A stretch of 64,000 nucleotides of DNA, from NCBI GenBank assembly GCA_963736005.1, contig CAVTNB010000003.1:352001-416000 (forward strand). Reading direction: 5' to 3'. The notes under the pieces were generated by a model, which searched no databases, was not told the DNA's origin, and worked only from the letters and a program-made list of their open reading frames with translations. Every line of letters begins with the position of its first letter. Positions within the stretch are counted from its first letter, which is position 1. The DNA is from an uncultured Pseudomonadota bacterium. Lineage in GTDB: Bacteria > Vulcanimicrobiota > Vulcanimicrobiia > Eremiobacterales > Eremiobacteraceae. Shown here in pieces: positions 3,923-59,604 of the stretch. The position numbers and the translations under genes are program-made.

Positions 3923-5238
3923 TCTTCAGGCGGAAAGAGGCGGTCGCCCACGATCTCGGGCGCTTGAAGCGATCGCGGCACTCGCTCGATCTGAGGCAGG
4001 GCTCTTAGTTCGGAATCGCTGCCCACCGCTTTGAGATCGCGGAACTTTCGGGCGCTCACCAAGACTCGGCTTTCGAGGGTGCCGACTGCCTTGTTGTAAA
4101 AGTCAACCGAAGCTCGCAAACTGCTGCCTAGCTTTGTGAAGTGTTCGGATAGATCGCTGAGTCGCTTGTATAAGTCGCGACCCAAATTACCGATTTCCTT
4201 GGCTTCTTGGGCGATTGCTTCTTGTCTCCAGCCATAGTAGATGGCGCGCAGCAAGCCGATCAGCGTGGTGGGCGTCGCGAGAATGATATTTTGGTCGCTT
4301 CCCGCTTCGATGAGTGATGGATCGGCCTCGAGTGCGGCACTAAAGAACATCTCACCCGGCAGGAACATGATGACGAGTTCGGGCGCCTCGCCAAGTTGAG
4401 TCCAGTATGCCTTTTTGGCAAGGTTGTTGATGTGCGTGCGAACCTTCTGGGCATAGGCTTGAAGAAGGCTGCGTCGTGCCTCGTTGTCTTCCGCTTTGAG
4501 CGCCTCGAAATACGAGGCGATCGGAGCCTTCGCATCCACAAAGATGCTCTTGTTGCCTGGAAGTCGGACGCGCACGTCGGGCCGCAATCGGCCGTCTTCA
4601 CTTTCGACGGTTTCTTGCTCGTAGAAATCGCAGTGGGCTAGCATGCCCGCCATTTCGACGACCCGGCGAAGTTGAATTTCGCCCCATCGGCCTCGCACGG
4701 TGGGCGAGCTGAGCGCACGTACGAGGTTCGACGTTTCCGACCGCAAAGCGGTCTGCCCCTCAGCGAGCGCCTTTACTTGCTCGCTCAACGCCGTGTACGC
4801 GCCGACGCGGTTTTTTTCGAGTTCCCCGATCTTAGCGTCGACTTTTTCGAGCGCTTCTCGAACTGGTGTTATCGTCTGATCGATTGCTTGCTGACGTTTG
4901 TCAAGATCGCTGGTTGCTGCTTGCTGGTATTTTTCAAGCGTCTGTTTGGCCAGGTCCAGAAACGATTGGTTGTTGGTTTGCAACGCTTGCGCTGAGAGCG
5001 CCGCGAAGGCGTTCGAAAGCCTTTGCTGCGCTTCGTCGAGCAGGGCGAGCTTCTCACCGGAAGCTTTTTTCTCGGCAGCGAGCTGCGCTTCCAAACGGGC
5101 GCGCGCAGATATGGCTTCAGTCAACTCCGTTTGCAGCTTGTCGAGGTTGCGCGTGTCGCCGGCGCGGCTCAGCCAAATGGCGAGCGCACCGATCGCAATC
5201 CCCAGCACGAAGAGCGCAATGGGGAAAAATTCGTTCAT
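3781..5238 (-). CDS. rmuC: DNA recombination protein RmuC
   Basis: N-terminal TM helix, coiled coil, RGRWGE, RPD..VDAKAP, MFLPGE, TPTTL; ATGA overlap with upstream ogt. Confidence 0.93.
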   Translation of the reverse strand: MNEFFPIALFVLGIAIGALAIWLSRAGDTRNLDKLQTELTEAISARARLEAQLAAEKKASGEKLALLDEAQQRLSNAFAALSAQALQTNNQSFLDLAKQTLEKYQQAATSDLDKRQQAIDQTITPVREALEKVDAKIGELEKNRVGAYTALSEQVKALAEGQTALRSETSNLVRALSSPTVRGRWGEIQLRRVVEMAGMLAHCDFYEQETVESEDGRLRPDVRVRLPGNKSIFVDAKAPIASYFEALKAEDNEARRSLLQAYAQKVRTHINNLAKKAYWTQLGEAPELVIMFLPGEMFFSAALEADPSLIEAGSDQNIILATPTTLIGLLRAIYYGWRQEAIAQEAKEIGNLGRDLYKRLSDLSEHFTKLGSSLRASVDFYNKAVGTLESRVLVSARKFRDLKAVGSDSELRALPQIERVPRSLQAPEIVGDRLFPPEDQSTDDEVDGVEELNRATIAERNPSSPAPVFADTKTPASPKSVPGPS

Positions 5239-5807
5239 CGGTGGGTGGTTCGCGCTTGCTTCTCGGAACGCTTTTTGGCTCGGGGAGTTGGTGACGCGAG
5301 CCTCACACCCTCTTGCTCGAGCAATGCGCGCTTTCGCGCTTGACCGACTGCTCCGTTGCCGTACGATCCAATGCTGCCATCTGCATGGATGACGCGATGG
5401 CACGGAACGAGAAGCCACAGCGGATTTCGGGCCATGGTGGTTGCCGCAGCTCTGACGGCAAGCGGCCTCCTTGCCTCGCGGGCAAGCCAACTGTACGAGC
5501 GCGTCTGGCCGTAGGGAATGCGACGGGTTGCTTCAAGCACGTCACGTTCGAAGTCTCTAGCCCACGCGAGGTCGACGGGCACTTCTTCTGCCTTCCCTTT
5601 TGTCGCAAGAACGAGAAACTGTCGGAACACGGGCGGCGGCGATGCTTCCACGAGGTCCATTTTGACGCGGCGTTTGAGGTCGCGTTTCGTTGTGAGCGTT
5701 TCTCGCTCCACGGCGGCGATGCCCGAGTTCGTCCAGGCAATGCGAAGCCGATCTTTTCCAATTGTGACGACTGCCGTTTTGCAGGCGGGGCGGAATCGTT
5801 TTTTCAT
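5235..5807 (-). CDS. ogt: Methylated-DNA-protein-cysteine methyltransferase
   Basis: IPYGQTRSY, RAAAT, NP...VPCHRV active site. Confidence 0.92.
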   Translation of the reverse strand: MKKRFRPACKTAVVTIGKDRLRIAWTNSGIAAVERETLTTKRDLKRRVKMDLVEASPPPVFRQFLVLATKGKAEEVPVDLAWARDFERDVLEATRRIPYGQTRSYSWLAREARRPLAVRAAATTMARNPLWLLVPCHRVIHADGSIGSYGNGAVGQARKRALLEQEGVRLASPTPRAKKRSEKQARTTHR

Positions 5808-32970: not shown

Positions 32971-33177
32971 TTAGATTTTTTTGCGAATAAAGCGCTCTAA
33001 CACGTATTGAGCAATTTGCCTCGCCGCTTGCGTCGAGTAGTAGGCGAACTGCCGCGGAGAAGTCGCCGTCTTCCCCATAGCCACGTCGATAATGCCTCGC
33101 GCGAACGTCTCGAGTTCGTCATCTCGTTCGAGTTGATACGGATTCTTTGGTTGCTGGGATTGCGGACCCTCGCTCAT
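32971..33177 (-). CDS. Small hypothetical protein (68 aa)
   Basis: MSEGPQSQQPKNPYQLERDDELETFARGIIDVAM...; ATGA overlap with the MBL gene stop. Confidence 0.65.
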   Translation of the reverse strand: MSEGPQSQQPKNPYQLERDDELETFARGIIDVAMGKTATSPRQFAYYSTQAARQIAQYVLERFIRKKI

Positions 33178-33812
33178 GTTTGTTGCACGATGAAGGGGTT
33201 CGAGCGTCGTTCGTTGCCGATCGTTGTTTGCGGACCGTGGCCTGGAATGACGGTGACATTGTCTTCGAAGGCAAGGAGCTTGGAGCGGATGGACTGCATG
33301 ATCTGGGTGAACGAACCACCCCATAAATCCGTTCGTCCTATGCCGCCGGCGAAGAGCGTGTCGCCCGATAAGATGATCGGCTCGCGTTCTTCGATGACAA
33401 AACTGACGCTGCCCGGCGTGTGGCCCGGCGTGTGAACGGCGCGCAGCGCGTGGCGCCCAAATTGCAGAGGTTGGCTTTCGCGAAGATAGCTGTCGACGTC
33501 CGCCGTTGTAGGCGTGGGAACGCCAAGCCACGCCGCTTGCTCGGCGATGTTTTTGTAAAGAGGTATGTCGGCCTCGTGCATCATGATCGGCGCGCCGGTC
33601 CGCTCCTTGAGATCGGCAAGTGCTGCAACGTGATCGATATGTGCATGCGTTGCGACAATCGCGGCGAGCTTTAGATCGTGCTTGCGCAGGGCTTGATAGA
33701 TGTTTTCCACGTCACCCCCCGGATCCACCACAATCCCTGTTTTTGTCGCTTCATCGCCCAGAATGATGCAGTTGCAGGCTATCGGACCGACGGGGAAATA
33801 TCGCAAAATCAT
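33174..33812 (-). CDS. MBL-fold metallo-hydrolase (glyoxalase II/YcbL-like)
   Basis: VDPGG, THAHIDH, TPGHTPG, SGDTLF..IGRTD, PGHG. Confidence 0.93.
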   Translation of the reverse strand: MILRYFPVGPIACNCIILGDEATKTGIVVDPGGDVENIYQALRKHDLKLAAIVATHAHIDHVAALADLKERTGAPIMMHEADIPLYKNIAEQAAWLGVPTPTTADVDSYLRESQPLQFGRHALRAVHTPGHTPGSVSFVIEEREPIILSGDTLFAGGIGRTDLWGGSFTQIMQSIRSKLLAFEDNVTVIPGHGPQTTIGNERRSNPFIVQQT

Positions 33813-33915
33813 ATGCGGCTGCAAGCTTAGTGCGCGTTGCAAAGCCACCCTGCCCGCGGGCTCGGAGGTTTGCGGGTACGGCCCTGTCAAAACGCACATT
33901 GTTTTGGACGCTCAC

Positions 33916-35013
33916 ATGATACGCACGGTTGCAAGCGGCCTCGATCGCAAGCTTTTGGATTTCATCTCTAGTCCGGATGCCGGCGAGGCCGAATTCGAGC
34001 AGCTGGCGCTGGAGCTGTTTGCCTACCAGTACTCGGCAAATCAACCATATCGCAATCTGTGCGATCAACGCAACCGCACGCCGGAGCTCGTTCGCCGCTG
34101 GACCCACATTCCCGCGCTCTCAGCAGCGTCCTTCGCCGACGCTCGCATCGCTTGCTTTCCGCCCGAGCGCGCGCGCTTGCGTTTCGTTTCCAGCGGCACA
34201 ACGAGCGAGGGAGAGCGAGCGTCGGTGCACGAGCTTGAGAACGCCGTGCTGTACGATGCTTCGCTTGCGAATCATTTCCGGCGATGCGTTCTGCCAGATC
34301 GCGAAAAGATCGAGATGCTGCTGCTCTCCCCTTCCTTTGAAGACGCGCCTCAGTCGTCGCTTGCCTACATGCTTTCCCGCCTCTACGAACGATACGCAAG
34401 CGGCGGTGACTTCTTCGTTCGGCACGGCAGTCTCGACTCGCAGGGGATCGCCAGCACGTTGCGCTCGGCTCGCGAGCCCGTGCTCCTTTTCGGCACGGCA
34501 TTTGCCTTCGTTCATTTCTTCGACTATTGCGACGCCGCTCGCCTCAAGTTCCAGGTTCCCCCGGGTAGTCGCATCGTCGAAACAGGCGGCTTCAAGGGAA
34601 AATCTCGATCGATCGAACGAGATGAATTTCATCGGGTACTCTCGTCGACATTTGGCATTTCGCCAGAGTGGTGCATTTCCGAGTACGGCATGTGCGAGCT
34701 CGGCAGTCAATGGTATGACGCGAGTCTGAGCGACAAGCTCGCGGGTCGTCCGCCGCGCCTGGCGTTCAAAGTCGGGCCCCATTGGACTCGGCACCTGGTC
34801 GTCGATCCTGTTAGCGCGGAGCCGCTGCCCGAAGGCTCCGTAGGATTGCTCCAAGTATTCGATTTGAGCAATCGAGGATCGGTGGCAGCAGTGCTCACAG
34901 GCGATCTGGTCAGGGGCGAAGGCGAGGGCTTTACGTACGTAAGCCGCTCGCAGGCCGCTCCGCCAAAGGGTTGCAGCATCACCGTCGATTCGATGCTTCG
35001 GTCTCATGCCTAA
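33916..35013 (+). CDS. LuxE-like acyl-protein synthetase
   Basis: FAYQY..N..Y, FVSSGTT, ETGGFKG, SEYGMCEL, LTGDL, C-terminal KGCS. Confidence 0.85.
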   Translation: MIRTVASGLDRKLLDFISSPDAGEAEFEQLALELFAYQYSANQPYRNLCDQRNRTPELVRRWTHIPALSAASFADARIACFPPERARLRFVSSGTTSEGERASVHELENAVLYDASLANHFRRCVLPDREKIEMLLLSPSFEDAPQSSLAYMLSRLYERYASGGDFFVRHGSLDSQGIASTLRSAREPVLLFGTAFAFVHFFDYCDAARLKFQVPPGSRIVETGGFKGKSRSIERDEFHRVLSSTFGISPEWCISEYGMCELGSQWYDASLSDKLAGRPPRLAFKVGPHWTRHLVVDPVSAEPLPEGSVGLLQVFDLSNRGSVAAVLTGDLVRGEGEGFTYVSRSQAAPPKGCSITVDSMLRSHA

Positions 35014-36211
35014 CGCCCAACCAATTGCCAGTGCCCGCACAACGGCGCTGTTGGCAGGAGCGGCGCAATGGCGCCATCGGAATTCCCACGTCCGCATCGC
35101 AGCGCGCGAAGCGCTGCGCGACGGGGAGTGGCCTGCCCAAGTCGTCGAGCTGGCACTCGACAACGTCCTGCTCGATGACCAAGTGCTGAGCGAATACGGC
35201 AGCGGACCTGGCAGCAGCGGACTCTGTAGCAGTGGACCTGTAGTGGGCGACTGTCAAGTCGCCCGCCGAAACTCAATGCTTGCCATCCTCCCAGGCAACG
35301 TCTTGGGCCCGGCGATTGCCACGGCATATTGCGCCGCCGCGGCGGGCGCGACCATCATGCTCAAGTCTTCGAGCCGAGAACTGTGCCTTGCGAATATCGT
35401 CGCAGAACAATTCGAATCGCTCGGTCCGCCAATCGCAGGCACGCTGAAGGCGCTGCGATGGACCGGAGGTGACGAGGATTTCGAATCTAAGATTTTTCCG
35501 CTAGCTTCCCGGATTATCGTTTTTGGCGACGACGCAACAATCGCCGACGTCAAGCGTCGTGCCCCCAGCAACGTCACCGTTGTGGGGTACGGCAGCGCCT
35601 ACAGCCTCGGCTACGTTCCGGCCGGCAGCGACATGGCTGCTGCTGCCAAGGCCGCCGCAACGGACGTCGCATTGTTCGATCAGCGTGGATGCCTCTCACC
35701 GCAAACGATCTATGTCGAGGGCGACGATTCAAAGGCGATCCTGTTCGCGCATGCGTTGAGCGGCGCTCTGGCCCGGGTTGGCCGTGCTCTTCCGCGTGGG
35801 CAGGCGGGCGGCGCCGAAAAGGCGGCGGTCGCGGAGTTCATACGGCGGCTCATGGTGAGAGCACTCGCTCCCAAGACGCATGCTCTCGACACGGTGATCG
35901 TCGGACCCGATATTGATGGAATCCCCGAATTTGTCGTTGGTGCTGAAGCGTTCTCCGCGCCGACGTGCGCCGGATTCGGAAGAATCGTGGTGGTGAAGCC
36001 GGTCCACAGCCCCTCCGACGCTGCTGGAGCTGCAAAGACCTTGGGTCATCGTCTGGACTCGATCGGCGTCGCTTCGGCGTTGAGCCCGCAACTCCGCGGC
36101 GCATTCGCCAACTGCGGTGCGTCCCGCCTTTGCTCGCTGGGAGAGATGCAGCGTCCGCCACTTGGCTATCGCCCGAAGATATCGGACTTCGCGCTCGAGG
36201 ACTCCGAATGA
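35006..36211 (+). CDS. LuxC-like acyl-CoA reductase
   Basis: ILPGNV, LKSSS, WTGGD, VFGDDATI, DVALFDQRGCLSPQ (catalytic Cys region), GASRLCSLGEMQRP. Confidence 0.82.
   Translation: MPNAQPIASARTTALLAGAAQWRHRNSHVRIAAREALRDGEWPAQVVELALDNVLLDDQVLSEYGSGPGSSGLCSSGPVVGDCQVARRNSMLAILPGNVLGPAIATAYCAAAAGATIMLKSSSRELCLANIVAEQFESLGPPIAGTLKALRWTGGDEDFESKIFPLASRIIVFGDDATIADVKRRAPSNVTVVGYGSAYSLGYVPAGSDMAAAAKAAATDVALFDQRGCLSPQTIYVEGDDSKAILFAHALSGALARVGRALPRGQAGGAEKAAVAEFIRRLMVRALAPKTHALDTVIVGPDIDGIPEFVVGAEAFSAPTCAGFGRIVVVKPVHSPSDAAGAAKTLGHRLDSIGVASALSPQLRGAFANCGASRLCSLGEMQRPPLGYRPKISDFALEDSE
35199..35264 (+). repeat. REP-derived in-frame insertion inside the luxC-like CDS
   Basis: Three truncated family-C units (gcagcggacct; gcagcagcggactct; gtagcagtggacct) plus a full family-D unit gtagtgggcgactgtcaagtcgccc. 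Confidence 0.75.
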
Positions 36212-37572
36212 GCGCTCGAACGTTCGGAACGCAACCGGGCAAGATCAAAGTCAAGCCGCCAGGTCCAAAGAGTCGGCGTCTGACCGTGGAGCTGCGTCGC
36301 TACGAAAGCCGCAACGTCACCTTCGTTAACAAAGACTTTCCTATCTTTTTCTCCCAAGCAGCCGGTGCGAATGTCGTTGACGTTGACGAGAACGTTTACG
36401 TGGACCTCACCGGCTTTTTTGGCGTGGCGGCGACAGGCCACAGCAACGAGCGCGTGGCCGACGCGATTGGGAACCAAGCTCATCGCTTGCTCCATGGCAT
36501 GGGCGATGTGTATCCGACGGAGAGCAAAGTTGCGCTGGCGCGCGAGCTGTGCAAACTGACGCCGGGCAAAGGGAACAAGCGGGTCATCTTTGCCTCAACC
36601 GGGGCTGAGGCAGTTGAATCCGCGTTGAAGACAGCGGCGATTGCCACCGGCAAGCCCGGTGTCTTGTGTTTCACGGGTGCGTACCACGGCCTCACCTACG
36701 GGGCGCTTTCGGTTACGGACCGGGATTTGTTCCGCGCTCCGTTCTCCGATCAGCTCGGCCATTTCAGCCACAGAGTGGACTTTCCGTATTGTTACCGCTG
36801 CCCGCTGGGGCTCCGGTATCCATCGTGTAAGGTTGCGTGCCTTGACTTCGTTCGCAGCGCGCTCGAAAGGTTGGGCCCTTCTGAGATCGGAGCGGTCATC
36901 GTTGAGCCCATGCAAGGGCGGGGTGGGGAGATTCCTGCGCCGGACCAATGGCTACAAGAGCTGCGAACGTTCTGCGACGAGCAAGGCCTGCTGCTCATCT
37001 GCGACGAGATTTTCTCCGGGTTTGGACGTACCGGACGCTGGTTTGCCTGCGAACACGCCGGTATCGTGCCGGACATCATCTGTGTCGGCAAAGGCCTCTC
37101 ATCTGGATTTCCGATCTCCGCCTGCATCGGTAAGGCGGAGATCATGGATCGTTGGCCCGCATCGGAAGGCGAGGCAATACACACGAGCACGTTCCTCGGG
37201 CATCCTACCGGCTGCATGGCGGCGCTCGCGTCGATTGCAGAAGTGCAAGAACACAGACTCGTTGCACGAGCAGCAAAACTCGAGGGATCCGTGCGCGAGA
37301 TGCTTGTGAAGCTACAGAAAGAAAGCAAGGGGAAAATTGGCGATGTGCGCGGGCTCGGGCTCATGTGGGGGCTCGAGTGCATCAAGCGCGATGGCTCGCC
37401 CGATAAGGATCTCGCCCTCCACGTCCTGCGGGATGCGATGCAGCAGGGTGTGCTTATCTTGACCAGCGGACCTCAGGGCAACGTTCTGTCAATAACCCCT
37501 CCGCTTGTCATCACGACGGATCAGCTCGCGTTTGCGATCGACATCCTTGCAAATGCAATCAAAAAGGCCTGA
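36208..37572 (+). CDS. Class III PLP-dependent aminotransferase (GabT/ArgD superfamily)
   Basis: TGAEAVE, AYHG, VEPMQG, DEIFSGFGRTG, PDIICVGKGL, HTSTFLG, VRGLGLM; ATGA overlap with luxC. Confidence 0.93.
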   Translation: MSARTFGTQPGKIKVKPPGPKSRRLTVELRRYESRNVTFVNKDFPIFFSQAAGANVVDVDENVYVDLTGFFGVAATGHSNERVADAIGNQAHRLLHGMGDVYPTESKVALARELCKLTPGKGNKRVIFASTGAEAVESALKTAAIATGKPGVLCFTGAYHGLTYGALSVTDRDLFRAPFSDQLGHFSHRVDFPYCYRCPLGLRYPSCKVACLDFVRSALERLGPSEIGAVIVEPMQGRGGEIPAPDQWLQELRTFCDEQGLLLICDEIFSGFGRTGRWFACEHAGIVPDIICVGKGLSSGFPISACIGKAEIMDRWPASEGEAIHTSTFLGHPTGCMAALASIAEVQEHRLVARAAKLEGSVREMLVKLQKESKGKIGDVRGLGLMWGLECIKRDGSPDKDLALHVLRDAMQQGVLILTSGPQGNVLSITPPLVITTDQLAFAIDILANAIKKA

Positions 37573-52950: not shown

Positions 52951-55014
52951 CTATTTTGCGGCGGCCGCCATCTCTTTGCGTTCGGCCGTGACGATTTGCA
53001 CGACCTTAGGCGGAGCAAACTCGAAATGATCGTGCTCCGCTGTGTAGTAACCGAGGCCTTGGGTGGCCGTGCGCAGCTCGGTTAAATATCGCGGCATTTC
53101 CGATTGCGGCACGAGCGCTTTGACGACATCTGCGCCTCGGCGCTCTTCGCTCGGACCGTAGTTGAGAATCTGGCCGCGGTGACCGCTGATTTGTTGCAGC
53201 ACCGTGCTCGTGTACGTGGTTGGCACGGTGATCTCAACTCGTTGAATCGGCTCGAGCAGCACGGGATGACATTTTGGCATGCCCTCGCGCATGGCGAGCG
53301 AAGCTGCAAGTTTGAAGGACATTTCATTCGAGTCGACGCTGTGGTACGAACCGTCGTAGAGCGTCACCTTAAGGTCCACCACCGGGAAGCCTCCCAACGG
53401 CCCGCGTTCGAGCGCTTCCCGCACGCCTTTTTCGACGCCTGGAAAAAACTGCTTCGGTACAGAACCGCCGACCACACGCTCGTCAAATTTGAAACCAGAA
53501 CCGCGAGGCAACGGCTCGATCTCAATGTGAACATCGCCGAACATGCCGTGGCCTCCGGTTTGGTGCTTGTATCGGCCCTGCTGTTGCGTCTTGCCCGTAA
53601 TGGTTTCGCGATAGGGCACCGCGGGCAGCTGCGTGTCGAGCTTCACGCTGTACTTGCGCTGTAAGCGTTCCACGGTGACGGCGAGGTGCATTTCCCCATA
53701 GCCGCGCAGCACGAGCTCATCAGTAAACTCAGCACGCTCGACAACCAGGGTTGGATCTTCTTCGCGCATGCGCACGAGCAATTGTGAGAGCTTTGCTTCG
53801 TCCGATCGGTCGTGGGGACGCAATGCCAACGAGAAGGCTGCCTTCGGCAATTTGCGCTTGGGCATGATCGTCTTGTTTGCATTGGAACACAGGGTGTCGC
53901 CCGTGACGGTCGTATCGAGCCGCGCTATCGCCGCAATGCTGCCCGGACCGAGGTTGCTCGCGGTCGTCTGCGCCTTGCCGAGCAGCGCGTAGAGGCCGCC
54001 GGGGCGCTCCTTGACGTCGCGATTGACGTTGACAAGCGCGGTGTCCGGATTGAGCGTTCCAGAAAAAACTCTGACGATCGAAAGCTTGCCGCTTTGTGGG
54101 TGGACGATCGTCTTGCAGACTTGGGCGACAACCGGTCCGTTTGGATTTGGTTCGACAACTTTGCCAGCTTCATCATTGCGCCGCACTTGCGTACCGTCGG
54201 GAAACTGCCGGATGATGAGGTCGAGGAGCTCGGCGACTCCCCAGCCGCGGATGCCGCTGGTAACGAGCACGGGTATGATCTTATCGGCGCTGACATCTGT
54301 CGTGAGATCCTGTTCGACCTCTTCGAGCGGCGGCTCCGTGCCCTCCAAAATCTCTTCCATGAGGTGGTCGTCGAAATCGGCCAGCGCTTCGAGCAGTTGC
54401 TCGTGATTCTTGTCGGCAAAATGTTCAGGCAAGGTGCTGGGGCTTGCCACGCCGTCCGAATACTTGTACGCTTTCATCGTCACCACGTCGACGAACCCTG
54501 ACAGGTTCTCGCCTTGGCCAATCGGCGCTTGCTCGGCCACCACGTGGTTGCCGAAGCGCTGGCGCAGCGCCGCGTACGTGCCAACGAAATCTGCGCCGGG
54601 ACGGTCGAGCCGATTGATGACGAAGCAATGCGGCAAGGAGAGCGATTCGACATAATCGACGATCATCTCGACTTGCGGCAAACGGTTAGGATCGGCCTCG
54701 ACGACGATGATGACGGCATCTGCGCCGGCGAGTGCAAACTTGGTCTCCTCAAGAAAATCGACTGCTCCTGGGCAGTCGATGATGTTGACAGACACTCCCC
54801 CGCTTCGCAGATAGGCGAATCCTGGCGTGACCGACATTTGGTGAGCGTGCGATTCGGGATCGTGATCTGTCGTCGCGGTGCCATCGACGACTGAGCCTTT
54901 GCGGGGAATCGCTTGGGTGTGAGCGAGCAGCGCCTCGACGAGCGTGGTCTTGCCGCTGTGGTGCGGGCCGACAAAAGCGACATTCCTGATGCCTTGGGCT
55001 TGCGCTGCAGCCAT
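52951..55014 (-). CDS. Elongation factor G paralogue (EF-G2-like)
   Basis: GPHHSGKTT, DCPG, EEDPT, GEMHL, VPYRETI, KHQTGGHG, DGSYHSVDS, LLEPI; GGAGG RBS. Confidence 0.93.
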   Translation of the reverse strand: MAAAQAQGIRNVAFVGPHHSGKTTLVEALLAHTQAIPRKGSVVDGTATTDHDPESHAHQMSVTPGFAYLRSGGVSVNIIDCPGAVDFLEETKFALAGADAVIIVVEADPNRLPQVEMIVDYVESLSLPHCFVINRLDRPGADFVGTYAALRQRFGNHVVAEQAPIGQGENLSGFVDVVTMKAYKYSDGVASPSTLPEHFADKNHEQLLEALADFDDHLMEEILEGTEPPLEEVEQDLTTDVSADKIIPVLVTSGIRGWGVAELLDLIIRQFPDGTQVRRNDEAGKVVEPNPNGPVVAQVCKTIVHPQSGKLSIVRVFSGTLNPDTALVNVNRDVKERPGGLYALLGKAQTTASNLGPGSIAAIARLDTTVTGDTLCSNANKTIMPKRKLPKAAFSLALRPHDRSDEAKLSQLLVRMREEDPTLVVERAEFTDELVLRGYGEMHLAVTVERLQRKYSVKLDTQLPAVPYRETITGKTQQQGRYKHQTGGHGMFGDVHIEIEPLPRGSGFKFDERVVGGSVPKQFFPGVEKGVREALERGPLGGFPVVDLKVTLYDGSYHSVDSNEMSFKLAASLAMREGMPKCHPVLLEPIQRVEITVPTTYTSTVLQQISGHRGQILNYGPSEERRGADVVKALVPQSEMPRYLTELRTATQGLGYYTAEHDHFEFAPPKVVQIVTAERKEMAAAAK

Positions 55015-55146
55015 CATGACCTCCGCATCATTGAGAAAAGGGAGTGGGCTTTTCGACGCGGGTAGGAGCTTGCCTCTCGCCATGCGGGTCTGCGGCGCGG
55101 CACACGGGGGGTAGCAGCGGGAGGTGGCGCGAAAAAACGTTGTCCG

Positions 55147-55833
55147 ATGAACGCCCAGGCCACGCTGAACGTCAACGAGACGTTCGTTTCCATTCAGGGC
55201 GAAGGCGACCTGATCGGCGCGCCTGCGCTTTTTATTCGACTCGACGGCTGTCCGCTGCGCTGTTCGTGGTGCGATACGCCATACGCGTTGGCTGGTGACG
55301 CGGGGCGGCCCACGGACGTCGTTGCCTTGGCGGCGCTCGCTCGAAATCACAAGCGCATCGTTATTACCGGCGGTGAACCGCTCGCCCAAGACATCAAACC
55401 GTTGGTGACGGCATTGCGCGATGCTCATGTTACGGTCGAAACCAGCGGCACGATCTTCGCCGACCTGCCGGACGTGGCGCTCTTCTCGATCAGCCCCAAG
55501 GTTGGTTCGTCCGGCTACACCCCCAAACCGATCGTCCTCCGCCAGTTTTGCGCGAGTGCCGCTGGCCGCATGCAGCTGAAATTCGTCATCGCAAACGAAC
55601 TGGATTTGGCGCAGGCTCGAGCGCTGCTCCTCGCCATACGCGCAGATCTCCCACCGCGAACACCCATCATCTTGCAACCCGAAAGCGGCGAGGCGAACAA
55701 AAACAACTCCTATCTGTCGTTTTTGCGGTGGCTCACCGAAGCGGTGCTCGCAGATGAAACATGGAGCGACTTTAACGTCCGCGTGCTTCCGCAGTTGCAT
55801 TACTTGCTTTGGCACGGAGAGCCGGGCCGATGA
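55147..55833 (+). CDS. queE: 7-carboxy-7-deazaguanine synthase (radical SAM)
   Basis: FVSIQGEG, CPLRCSWCDT, ITGGEPL, VETSG, ISPK, PQLH. Confidence 0.92.
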   Translation: MNAQATLNVNETFVSIQGEGDLIGAPALFIRLDGCPLRCSWCDTPYALAGDAGRPTDVVALAALARNHKRIVITGGEPLAQDIKPLVTALRDAHVTVETSGTIFADLPDVALFSISPKVGSSGYTPKPIVLRQFCASAAGRMQLKFVIANELDLAQARALLLAIRADLPPRTPIILQPESGEANKNNSYLSFLRWLTEAVLADETWSDFNVRVLPQLHYLLWHGEPGR

Positions 55834-56192
55834 TATCCGTGTCGCTCACCTGTCACTTCGACGCGGCGCATCAACTCGTATTGCCGTATGATTCGCCGTG
55901 CAACCGCAGACACGGACACCGCTATACGGTTGAGATTACCGCCTCATCAGAAAAGCTGGAACATGGCATGGTCGTCGACTTCAATACGCTGCGCGAGGTC
56001 GTGGACGAGTTCGACCACTGCGATCTGAACGAACGACCGGAATTTTCTGTCACCGGTTTGGCGACGACTGCGGAAAATATTGCCTTTGTGCTGGCACAAA
56101 AACTCGAACACGCGGTTGGCCCGCGCGTGGCAATTGACGAGGTAACGGTGCGTGAAACGCCGCACTCGATGGCGCGTTGGAGGCGAGGCTAA
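55830..56192 (+). CDS. queD: 6-carboxy-5,6,7,8-tetrahydropterin synthase
   Basis: FDAAH, CNRRHGHRY, GMVVDF, FDH..LN, TAENIA, RETP. Confidence 0.92.
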   Translation: MISVSLTCHFDAAHQLVLPYDSPCNRRHGHRYTVEITASSEKLEHGMVVDFNTLREVVDEFDHCDLNERPEFSVTGLATTAENIAFVLAQKLEHAVGPRVAIDEVTVRETPHSMARWRRG

Positions 56193-58202: not shown

Positions 58203-58228
58203 GGGGCGATTTTCCAATCGCCCCCTAC
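58203..58228 (-). repeat. Family-A REP-like palindrome filling the tnaA-thioesterase spacer
   Basis: ggggcgattttccaatcgccccctac. Confidence 0.85.
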
Positions 58229-59604
58229 AAGCGCTCAAAGCGAGCGGTGAAGTGCCGCAGCGGCGGCGATTGCCACGTCATTTTGAGGCCACGCACCTTC
58301 GCTTTGTCCTTGTACACTTCAGCCATCACCTCGATGACGTAGTCGACATGACTTTGCGTATAGACACGGCGCGGAATCGCGAGTCGAACGAGCTCCATCG
58401 CGGCGGGGGTCTCGGCACCCGTCTTCGGATCTATTGTGCCGAACATGACGGTTCCGATCTCCACGGCGCGAATGCCACCCGCGAGGTAGATTTCGCACAA
58501 GAGCGCTTGGCCCGGATATTGGAGCGGTGGAACCTGTGGTAAGAGCGCGGCTGCATCGACATAAATTGCGTGCCCGCCGGGTGGCTGCACGATCGGATAC
58601 CCAATCTCTGTCAGGTGCTTGCCGAGGTAGGCGGTCGAGGTAATGCGATATCTAAGGTAGTCATGATCGACGACCTCTTTGAGGCCGATGGCAATGGCCT
58701 CGAGGTCACGACCCGCCAGCCCGCCATAAGTTGGGAATCCTTCGGTCAAAATGAGAAGCGTCGCCTCTTGTTTGGCCAGCAATTCGTCGTTGGTCGCAAG
58801 AAAACCACCGATGTTAACCAGTCCGTCCTTCTTGGCTGACATCGTTGCTCCGTCGGCATACGAGAAGAGCTCGCGGGCGATGTCGATGACCGCTTTGCTC
58901 TCATAGCCTTTTTCGCGCTCGCGAATGAACCAGCAATTTTCGGCGAAGCGGCATGCATCGATGTAGAGCGGCAAGCGATGCTCCTTGCACACGTCGCGCA
59001 CCGCCTTGATGTTCTCCATCGAGACGGGCTGACCGCCACCGGAGTTGTTCGTGACGGTGAGCATGACGAGTGGAATCTTCTCCCTCCCAACCTCCGCAAT
59101 GAGGGCGCGCAATCCCGCCACGTCCATGTTGCCTTTGAACGGATGCATCGATGCGGGTTGGCGACCTTGCAGGATGGGCAAGTCGACGGCGACCGCACCG
59201 ACGTGCTCGATATTTGCGCGCGTCGTATCAAAATGCGTGTTGTTGGGAACCACGTCTCCTGGTTTGCAGACCGTGGCGAATAAAATGCGCTCGGCAGCGC
59301 GGCCTTGGTGAACTGGGAGCACGTATCGGAAGCCGAAGAGGTCGTGCACCGCATCGAAGAAACGATAGTACGAGCGTGCTCCCGCGTACGACTCGTCGCC
59401 TCGCATTATGCCAGCCCACTGCTCAGCGCTCATCGCTCCCGTGCCGCTGTCGGTGAGGAGATCGATGATGACGTCTTCGGCTTTGAGCAGAAACGGATTG
59501 TTGCCCGCAGCCTCAAGCAGCCGCTCGCGCTGGGCGCGCGTGGTCATCCGAATCGGTTCGACAACTTTAATACGAAAGGGTTCGATGATGGTATGAAATG
59601 ACAT
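58225..59604 (-). CDS. tnaA: Tryptophanase (beta-eliminating lyase)
   Basis: EPFRIKVVE, IDLLTDSGT, GDESYAG, HQGRAAE, MSAKKD (tyrosine phenol-lyases usually show MSGKKD), RLAIPRRVY, LRHFTARF. Confidence 0.9.
   Translation of the reverse strand: MSFHTIIEPFRIKVVEPIRMTTRAQRERLLEAAGNNPFLLKAEDVIIDLLTDSGTGAMSAEQWAGIMRGDESYAGARSYYRFFDAVHDLFGFRYVLPVHQGRAAERILFATVCKPGDVVPNNTHFDTTRANIEHVGAVAVDLPILQGRQPASMHPFKGNMDVAGLRALIAEVGREKIPLVMLTVTNNSGGGQPVSMENIKAVRDVCKEHRLPLYIDACRFAENCWFIREREKGYESKAVIDIARELFSYADGATMSAKKDGLVNIGGFLATNDELLAKQEATLLILTEGFPTYGGLAGRDLEAIAIGLKEVVDHDYLRYRITSTAYLGKHLTEIGYPIVQPPGGHAIYVDAAALLPQVPPLQYPGQALLCEIYLAGGIRAVEIGTVMFGTIDPKTGAETPAAMELVRLAIPRRVYTQSHVDYVIEVMAEVYKDKAKVRGLKMTWQSPPLRHFTARFERL

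Follow-up and report, generated by a model that had tools for sequence, protein, structure and literature searches.

We identified, in a 64,000-nucleotide stretch of DNA from an Eremiobacterota MAG that was analysed as a whole (hereafter the window), three genes that, judging from their sequences, should constitute one unit for the carrier-free conversion of a free carboxylic acid into a primary amine. This trio is kept throughout the class of the MAG and was found again in Nitrospirota, Binatia and Myxococcales. Its substrate is most likely 7-carboxy-7-deazaguanine (CDG), the QueE product, rather than a fatty acid, since the phyletic pattern (QueD, QueE, TGT and QueA kept, QueC and QueF missing) fits the chemistry predicted for the trio. 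We consider the chances about even that the reaction of the unit is the conversion of CDG to preQ1 by a nitrile-free route, independent of QueC and QueF and passing through 7-formyl-7-deazaguanine. The genes considered here are the following:

33916..35013, + strand: LuxE-like adenylating acyl-protein synthetase, 365 aa (PF04443)
35006..36211, + strand: LuxC-like thioester reductase of the ALDH superfamily, 401 aa (PF05893)
36208..37572, + strand: class III PLP aminotransferase of a subfamily of its own, 454 aa (PF00202)
33174..33899, - strand: divergent MBL-fold hydrolase, glyoxalase-II-like, with a likely start near 33812 (PF00753, 108.5 bits)
55147..55833, + strand: QueE-like 7-carboxy-7-deazaguanine synthase, whose best matches are five QueE models
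55809..56192, + strand: QueD-like 6-carboxytetrahydropterin synthase (TIGR03367, 71.8 bits; PF01242, 95.6 bits; G000:C3:407842-408183)

The three genes of the trio lie on the same strand and overlap by 8 bases at the LuxE/LuxC junction and by 4 bases at the LuxC/aminotransferase junction, where the stop codon of the LuxC-like gene is overlapped by the start codon of the aminotransferase gene. The LuxE-like reading frame is open from 33700 to 35013, with the ATG at 33916 being the point from which relatives align, and that of the aminotransferase spans 35965-37572, with a likely start at 36208. The original prediction of three overlapping genes of these families is borne out by the reading frames and their Pfam matches, and the motifs that it quoted (SSGTT, a C-terminal KGCS and DQRGCLSPQ) were all found in the translations. 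A promoter/terminator scan gave nothing usable. A search for longer fused forms of the LuxC-like protein found none, which is weak evidence.

Both Lux-type proteins are above the Pfam cut-offs of their families: the LuxE-like protein scores 65.8 bits against PF04443 (cut-off 24.9), the match spanning positions 30-384 of the 391-position profile, and the LuxC-like protein 121.5 bits against PF05893 (cut-off 21), which confirms the domain assignments by HMM. LuxE is described as having an adenylation pair, Lys238/Arg355, and a thioester-forming Cys364 in a C-terminal KGC (PMC9157457). In the alignment with PDB chain 7xc6_E (E 6.6e-13) these positions correspond to K227, R344 and C353 of the LuxE-like protein, which are invariant in 12/12 aligned homologues. 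Likewise, C229 of the LuxC-like protein aligns with the catalytic cysteine of 7xc6_A, residue 285 of the 477-residue chain as counted by hand, which we infer to be Cys296 of the 488-aa LuxC, and G228, C229 and S231 are invariant in 12/12. The AlphaFold model of the LuxC-like protein (pLDDT 83.2) has 7xc6_A as its best fold match (E 7e-17, TM 0.72), so the predicted structure shares the LuxC fold. For the long hydrophobic L-shaped cleft and the C-terminal element P460-P488, which in the LuxC fatty acid reductase take up a C14 chain, the comparison extends to length and sequence: the LuxC-like protein is 87 residues shorter, and its sequence alignment to 7xc6_A spans residues 76-274.

The original prediction assigned to the trio the reduction and amination of fatty or aryl acids to alkyl or aryl amines or an amino-lipid precursor. 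Membership of the LuxE and LuxC Pfam families speaks for it, since the members characterised so far all use long-chain fatty acids (PMC9157457), and reductase-plus-transaminase routes to fatty amines do exist, the Tab pathway being one (10.1101/2025.08.11.669332). Nevertheless, we regard such a substrate as improbable. The equivalog cut-offs of NCBIfam are missed by far, with 51.6 bits against 550 for the long-chain-fatty-acid--protein ligase (NF052244) and 60.5 bits against 750 for the long-chain-fatty-acyl-CoA reductase (NF052251). The LuxC-like protein is about 20% identical to 7XC6 LuxC. At the loci examined, the trio has no conserved neighbours of the lipid, ACP, thioesterase or biosynthetic-cluster kind, and its universal presence in a class of small genomes (1.9-4.7 Mb) is more in keeping with a housekeeping function than with a speciality lipid. 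Together with the phyletic pattern, which points to a queuosine precursor acid, these observations make the fatty, aryl or amino-lipid part of the prediction, for which we found no specific support, unlikely.

The trio thus has the two protein families of Photobacterium phosphoreum LuxC-LuxE (PDB 7XC6; PMC9157457) in the same order, with the adenylation Lys/Arg, the C-terminal KGC thioester cysteine, the reductase cysteine and the fold in common. It differs in sequence and in the length of the reductase (401 aa against 488 aa), in being coupled to an aminotransferase, in a substrate that is likely not a fatty acid, and in having no luciferase that we could find. The absence of luciferase genes claimed for the window extends, for the alpha subunit, to the whole genome, which is 84% complete and has no match to the luxA model NF052254. 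The thioester reductase plus transaminase routes to amines, TamH as well as TabE and TabA of tambjamine BE-18591, also convert an acid derivative to an aldehyde and this to a primary amine by an omega-transaminase; they belong to natural-product clusters and use fatty acids bound as ACP or CoA thioesters (10.1101/2025.08.11.669332). The trio, in contrast, would use a free acid activated by a LuxE-type enzyme, with neither carrier nor cluster.

The aminotransferase belongs to PF00202 (339.4 bits, cut-off 30.5) and falls under every curated cut-off among the best 25 models listed, the top NCBIfam model giving 372.7 bits where 552 are required and GabT (TIGR00700) 328.1 bits against 506.65. K295 is invariant in 11/11 and aligns with the lysine of the GabT motif AKG, which we take to be the PLP-binding residue. 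The GabT motifs HGRT and VIRLLPPL, whose two arginines presumably bind the carboxylates of the substrate and of 2-oxoglutarate, read HGLT and VLSITPPL, and thus the Eremiobacterial enzyme lacks both the carboxylate-binding arginine of GabT and the second conserved arginine. The trio aminotransferases of other phyla form another subgroup, with an HGD motif and the arginine kept. That the gene encodes an ordinary GabT or ArgD that happens to adjoin a LuxEC pair, a condition under which the original prediction would fall, is hardly credible, even though GabT enzymes are the closest solved structures (267.9 bits). Besides the scores below the cut-offs of the best 25 models listed and the overlap with the LuxC stop codon, the adjacency is retained in other phyla and where LuxC identity is as low as 24-30%, and elsewhere the genome encodes a true GabT (563 bits, cut-off 506.65) as well as a putrescine aminotransferase, HemL and an enzyme of the acetylornithine type, so that this reading is close to refuted. 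Routes by lysine, ornithine or ALA-type semialdehydes were also rejected, because the aminotransferase lacks the carboxylate-binding arginine and paralogues of the HemL and acetylornithine types are present in the genome. Some loci of the sister family have aconitase genes nearby.

Gene order and synteny are well conserved. The trio occurs in order in 18/19 family loci, the 19th terminating within LuxC, and the LuxC and aminotransferase genes adjoin each other in all 13 sister-family loci, in 15/59 loci of other phyla and in 61/80 metagenome loci; the LuxC-like protein is present in 40/41 class relatives. The aminotransferase, on whose synteny in other genomes the original prediction depended, accordingly accompanies the Lux-type genes across the class and three other phyla, and the trio is more than a chance synteny. 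The suggested association of the MBL hydrolase stands for one family, where its gene is adjacent in 13/19 loci (1.5 kb flanks) and in 19/21 Eremiobacterota-type loci (longer flanks), but not beyond it, as the gene was found in 0/13 sister-family loci and is absent from the loci of other phyla. The sister family has a GFO/IDH/MocA oxidoreductase gene that overlaps the aminotransferase gene and has no close orthologue in the present genome (best match 27% identical); therefore we place it outside the core unit. The tRNA beside two trio loci is tRNA-Glu and thus not a Q-tRNA.

The catalytic residues of the respective families are retained in all three proteins and, with family membership and synteny, support the predicted carrier-free logic from acid to aldehyde to amine. 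The LuxE-like protein would adenylate the acid with ATP and take the acyl group as a thioester on the C-terminal Cys353; the acyl group would then move to Cys229 of the LuxC-like protein, be released as the aldehyde by NAD(P)H reduction and be aminated by the class III aminotransferase. The chemistry of every step is inferred, as are the substrate and the amino donor.

To our knowledge, all bacteria that synthesise queuosine de novo are taken to do so by way of the nitrile preQ0. Among 41 class relatives, TGT and QueD are present in 41/41 and QueA in 40/41, while QueF was found in 0/41 and QueC above the cut-off in none. The Pfam QueC model gave 20-34 bit partial matches of two types, which turned out to be MnmA and a LarE-type PP-loop protein in the one case tested of each, and one further match of 72.5-80.5 bits, below the cut-off. 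The gap left in the class by QueC and QueF is exactly a carboxylate to aminomethyl conversion, matching the chemistry of the trio. In a phylum sample of 101 genomes, the 38 from within the class all have the LuxC orthologue and QueE, and none has QueF or QueC above the cut-off; the 63 from outside have no LuxC orthologue, with QueC in 29 and QueF in 12. QueE matches outside the class co-occur with QueC in 26 of 28 cases, the remaining two being 36-41 bit partial matches, so that every credible QueE carrier of the sample has either QueC or the trio.

An anticorrelation between QueC and any LuxC failed phylum-wide, as 17/30 LuxC-positive genomes outside the class carry QueC. These LuxC matches were set apart, in a post hoc split, because they belong to an arrangement of LuxE with a LuxC::AMP-binding fusion (850-930 aa, in other classes of the phylum) that has no aminotransferase. 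This arrangement is a separate system: it shares with the trio the two Pfam families side by side, but the fusions lie much nearer to the Pfam LuxC model (286-332 bits), have a PaaK-like adenylation domain and co-occur with QueC.

Five trio genomes from three other phyla (two Manganitrophaceae, two Binatia and one Myxococcales) repeat the pattern, with a QueE-like protein in 5/5 (a partial match in two of them), TGT in 5/5, QueC above the cut-off in 0/5 and QueF in 0/5. QueC is present in 93/101 genomes of a Nitrospirota sample, and the 8 genomes lacking it include the sole trio carrier. In terms of independent cases, this complementarity between the trio and QueC/QueF amounts to about four lineages rather than 46 genomes.

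In the proposed route to preQ1, the QueE-like protein of the window (112.4 bits to TIGR04349, the best of the five QueE models, all below their cut-offs) would supply CDG, the LuxE- and LuxC-like proteins would convert it to 7-formyl-7-deazaguanine, and the aminotransferase would yield preQ1 (7-aminomethyl-7-deazaguanine), to be put into tRNA by TGT. The trio would thus stand in for QueC, which turns the acid into the nitrile, and for QueF, which turns the nitrile into the amine, sharing with the sequence CDG, preQ0, preQ1 its start and end compounds. QueC likewise activates the CDG carboxylate with ATP, and QueF is the textbook biological nitrile reductase. QueC and QueF have no homology to the trio and were not found in genomes that carry it; moreover, the trio route would pass through an aldehyde instead of a nitrile, and its nitrogen would come from transamination instead of ammonia. 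7-Formyl-7-deazaguanine is a real, releasable compound, observed with QueF variants (PMC13740343). The salvage transporter YhhQ was found in 0/5 genomes searched. The TGT pocket reads GGLWVGE, keeping the valine that marks preQ1-type enzymes (10.1101/2023.12.05.570228). Our literature search, with subscription journals outside its scope, found neither a link of LuxE/LuxC to queuosine nor 7-formyl-7-deazaguanine as a pathway intermediate.

Several observations count against the preQ1 reading. The second arginine, which in relatives binds the carboxylate of the amino donor, is absent from the Eremiobacterial aminotransferase, and the sister-family GFO/IDH/MocA oxidoreductase has no role in the route. 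PanD is missing as well, which leaves another acid-to-amine step for the trio to fill. The same applies to gene neighbourhood and regulation: the overlapping queE-like and queD genes lie 18 kb downstream of the trio, outside the operon; tblastn with QueE, QueD, TGT and QueA of the window gave 0/80 metagenome loci with a que gene near the trio; no que family occurs among 93 flanking proteins of 22 metagenome loci; across loci L005-L116, QueD was seen only in L088 and L089, 4.5-5.5 kb off and behind a kinase gene; and no preQ1 riboswitch reached the Rfam gathering score in 37 sources.

This lack of a direct que-gene link leaves room for another small primary amine, derived from a free core-metabolism acid, in which case the queuosine gap would be filled otherwise or left. 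The trio stands alone amid unrelated housekeeping genes in the 22 metagenome loci examined, as expected for a self-contained core pathway, and the sister-family oxidoreductase hints at extra redox chemistry. We consider this unlikely, as the chemistry of the trio matches the QueC/QueF gap in about four lineages and we identified no further missing carboxylate to aminomethyl step besides that of beta-alanine. The latter is a second acid-to-amine hole, since PanD (PF02261) was found in 0/5 class genomes, four of them 97-99% complete, though panB, panC, coaBC and coaX are present in the genome of the MAG. The trio could replace PanD by making beta-alanine for pantothenate from malonate or a related acid, with malonate semialdehyde as the intermediate, and at one Nitrospirota locus (L060) panB lies about 0.9 kb from it. 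Only a slim chance is left to this possibility: the aminotransferase lacks both arginines that bind substrate carboxylates in GabT-type enzymes, the pan operon is 127 kb from the trio on the same contig, and other omega-aminotransferases of the genome, one of them adjoining a methylmalonate-semialdehyde dehydrogenase, could serve. Moreover, we know of no beta-alanine route with free malonate as an intermediate. The survey of PanD against the trio covers these five class genomes.

If the preQ1 reading is correct, the trio would represent a hitherto undescribed synthesis of preQ1, a second route, via an aldehyde, on which an entire class of Eremiobacterota and some lineages within Nitrospirota, Binatia and Myxococcota would rely. 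It would account for genomes that keep QueD, QueE, TGT and QueA without QueC and QueF, and would change how genomes are scored for queuosine synthesis versus salvage. For biocatalysis it would be of interest as a compact cascade in which three enzymes lead from a heteroaromatic acid to an aminomethyl group. It would also be the first assigned function for a large group of luciferase-less LuxE/LuxC homologues.

We identified in the window three overlapping genes, encoding a LuxE-like protein, a LuxC-like protein and a class-III aminotransferase:

33916-35013, same strand as the other two, LuxE-like gene; start at ATG 33916, where the alignments of relatives begin
35006-36211, same strand, LuxC-like ORF
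36208-37572, same strand, class-III aminotransferase ORF

Stop and start codons overlap by 8 bases at the LuxE-like/LuxC-like junction and by 4 bases at the LuxC-like/aminotransferase junction, and the Pfam scores in bits, 65.8 for LuxE, 121.5 for LuxC and 339.4 for Aminotran_3, are all well over the gathering scores. The three-gene operon of the original prediction is therefore real and its LuxE and LuxC domains are confirmed at the Pfam level, though the NCBI equivalog cut-offs that mark LuxE and LuxC proper were missed widely (51.6 versus 550 and 60.5 versus 750, respectively). The source MAG has 2.84 Mb in 6 contigs and is 84% complete.

The LuxE-like protein was aligned over 337 residues (E 6.6e-13) to the Photobacterium phosphoreum LuxC-LuxE complex (7XC6), with K227, R344 and C353 corresponding to Lys238, Arg355 and Cys364, described in an excerpt of PMC9157457 as the adenylation pair (Lys238/Arg355) and the thioester cysteine (Cys364, motif TRxxKGCxLS). 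These residues are invariant in 12/12 homologues from four phyla. In the LuxC-like protein, C229 lies opposite the cysteine of the QQAC|FS stretch of 7XC6 chain A, which, counted on the alignment, stands at position 285 in that chain of 477 residues and which we infer to be Cys296 of the 488-residue LuxC protein; G228, C229 and S231 are invariant in all 12 homologues. An AlphaFold model of the LuxC-like protein, from an alignment (A1) that takes in two rows from genomes flagged as unpublished (G011 and G013), had a pLDDT of 83.2 and 7xc6_A (LuxC) as its top PDB match (E 7e-17, TM 0.72, 20% identity). The trio would operate as LuxEC does, with an omega-transaminase step to follow, but its proteins are not orthologues of LuxE or LuxC.

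The aminotransferase scored under the curated cut-off of all the best 25 models listed (top 372.7 versus 552), and its own genome encodes eight more class-III paralogues, among them GabT (563 versus 506.65) and putrescine aminotransferase (686 versus 612), both over cut-off, HemL (501 versus 398) and an acetylornithine-type enzyme (582 versus 552). Since these are encoded elsewhere in the genome, the trio enzyme is a dedicated copy, and not the ordinary GabT or ArgD that would have refuted the original prediction. The mycobacterial GabT stretches AYHGRT and GNVIRLLPPL read AYHGLT and GNVLSITPPL in this enzyme, replacing two arginines with roles in carboxylate binding: the first holds the omega-carboxylate of GABA, the second the alpha-carboxylate of glutamate/2-oxoglutarate. 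The second loss leaves the amino donor unexplained. The first speaks against substrates of the GABA, ornithine, lysine or beta-alanine type, and thereby bears on a beta-alanine route, a live rival for the substrate of the trio, which is favored by the finding of PanD in none of five class genomes, though the own genome has a panB-panC-coaBC-coaX operon (G000:C3:512500-517444 and C5:1-390, loci L256 and L257; panB split over two contig ends). In Nitrospirota, Binatia and Myxococcales the aminotransferase of the trio falls into a separate subgroup (33-35% identity, FHGD motif, Arg retained), so that the partner may have been recruited more than once.

The LuxC-like query matched 38 of 41 relatives and a family search added two, the sole relative without a match being G019, an assembly of 370 contigs. 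The three genes occur in order in 18/19 same-family loci (15/16 without the three loci from the unpublished genomes G008, G011 and G013), the nineteenth stopping within LuxC. In the sister families, LuxC (24-30% identity) adjoins the aminotransferase in 13/13 loci, and LuxE is directly upstream in eight, 4.5 kb off in one and missing from four; these four belong to one genus, in which all five genomes carry a LuxE orthologue elsewhere. When each species was scanned through a single genome, 80 loci emerged, 21 Eremiobacterota-type and 59 other. A class-III aminotransferase stands beside LuxC in 15 of the 59 (Manganitrophaceae and other Nitrospirota, Binatia and Myxococcales); in the other 44, which come mostly from Thermoanaerobaculia and Multivorans, LuxE and LuxC stand with no aminotransferase in reach. 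Among metagenome loci the aminotransferase is present in 61/80, several of the remaining 19 being truncated by contig ends. Aminotransferase synteny, the lack of which would have refuted the original prediction, is thus kept across phyla.

The conversion of 7-carboxy-7-deazaguanine (CDG, the QueE product) to 7-aminomethyl-7-deazaguanine (preQ1), canonically performed by QueC and QueF via preQ0, is a carboxylate-to-aminomethyl step that exactly matches the chemistry that the trio, by its sequence, should do. The intermediate would be an aldehyde, a known and releasable compound according to an excerpt of PMC13740343. Our literature search found no paper describing the trio module; further papers are cited from excerpts (PMC12041015, PMC7874193, PMC4875605 and a preprint on tambjamine BE-18591, Tab pathway).

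Among the 41 relatives, TGT and QueD were found in 41/41 and QueA in 40/41 (missing in G019), and QueF in 0/41, its control being positive in 7/14 known genomes; these counts include three unpublished genomes, without which the pattern is the same. Pfam QueC gave mostly partial matches of 20-34 bits, of two types; the one locus tested of each type scored as MnmA and as the N-terminus of a LarE-type PP-loop protein, respectively; G006 (L117) reached 72.5-80.5 bits versus a cut-off of 150.3. QueC-like proteins of 72-84 bits, well under that cut-off, occur in three trio-bearing genomes (G006, G091 and G042). Overlapping queE-like and queD-like genes lie in the window (55147-56192), both under equivalog cut-offs and hence divergent members. 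Also in the window are an EF-G homologue (52951-55815; 954-residue frame with an N-terminal extension of ~270 residues, which may reflect an ORF called too long) and a tryptophanase (58225-59604, 693 bits). A second, more divergent QueA-like copy (~262 bits) accompanies the main copy (~391 bits) at G000:C1:552434-553408 and in many family genomes. The salvage transporter YhhQ was found in 0/5 class genomes. The TGT of the own genome (G000:C1:1468334-1469386) has the pocket motif GGLWVGE, with Trp in place of the E. coli-type Ala; an excerpt of a preprint (10.1101/2023.12.05.570228) gives GG[LS][AS]G for queuine-salvaging TGTs and GGLAVG, whose Val blocks queuine, for preQ1 enzymes.

In a sample of 101 genomes of the phylum, the 38 of the class (own genome included) all have a LuxC orthologue (>300 bits; one split over two contigs) and QueE, with QueC over cut-off in 0/38 and QueF in 0/38. 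Of the 63 genomes outside the class, none has a LuxC orthologue (best match 167 bits), 29 have QueC over cut-off and 12 have QueF; 26 of their 28 QueE matches co-occur with QueC, the other two being partials of 36-41 bits in ~420-residue frames. No QueF match over the PF14489 cut-off was seen in 17 of the 29 QueC-positive genomes; in one family (f13), for example, 5/6 genomes have no QueF match. The weaker LuxC matches outside the class belong to another system, LuxE beside an 850-930-residue LuxC::AMP-binding (PaaK-like) fusion with no aminotransferase, and these matches were set apart post hoc, after their architecture was seen. Such fusion loci (L152-L168, e.g. L154:6688-10628) come from other classes of the phylum; L154 carries a 245-bit QueE on the opposite strand, 1.2 kb from LuxE/fusion.

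Five trio genomes outside Eremiobacterota (two Manganitrophaceae, two Binatia and one Myxococcales) have QueC over cut-off in 0/5 (one 78.7-bit and one split match below it), QueF over cut-off in 0/5, QueE-like proteins in 5/5 (two partial only) and TGT in 5/5. QueC is present in 93/101 genomes of a Nitrospirota sample, whose lone trio carrier is among the eight lacking it. Two Manganitrophaceae-type loci have a fluoride riboswitch upstream of the trio (L081:4408-4475 and L170:5463-5528, the latter adjoining crcB, 5026-5397), which is probably unrelated to it.

Other observations weigh against preQ1, among them that the lineages concerned are few and made up of kin. QueE, QueD, TGT and QueA had no matches in the 80 metagenome loci, and no que family was found among 93 flanking proteins of 22 of them, the neighbors being unrelated housekeeping genes. 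Among loci L005-L116, L088 and L089 alone have QueD close to LuxE-LuxC, with a kinase gene between and the aminotransferase missing, and no preQ1 riboswitch was detected in 37 sources scanned. In the sister family, as in 12/80 metagenome loci, the next gene after the aminotransferase encodes a GFO/IDH/MocA oxidoreductase, and the two genes overlap in these sister-family loci:

L029:8399-9418, GFO/IDH/MocA gene
L033:8185-9225, GFO/IDH/MocA gene
L036:8444-9466, GFO/IDH/MocA gene

This enzyme, of which the own genome has no close orthologue, has no role in a preQ1 route, which counts against that route.

The trio is a conserved acid-to-amine module. The fatty-amine reading within the original prediction found no specific support, and CDG to preQ1 is the best-supported substrate assignment, to which we give about an even chance. 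The complementarity of the trio with QueC-QueF is upheld for the lineage of the window (class and phylum sample), where the trio would lead from CDG to preQ1.
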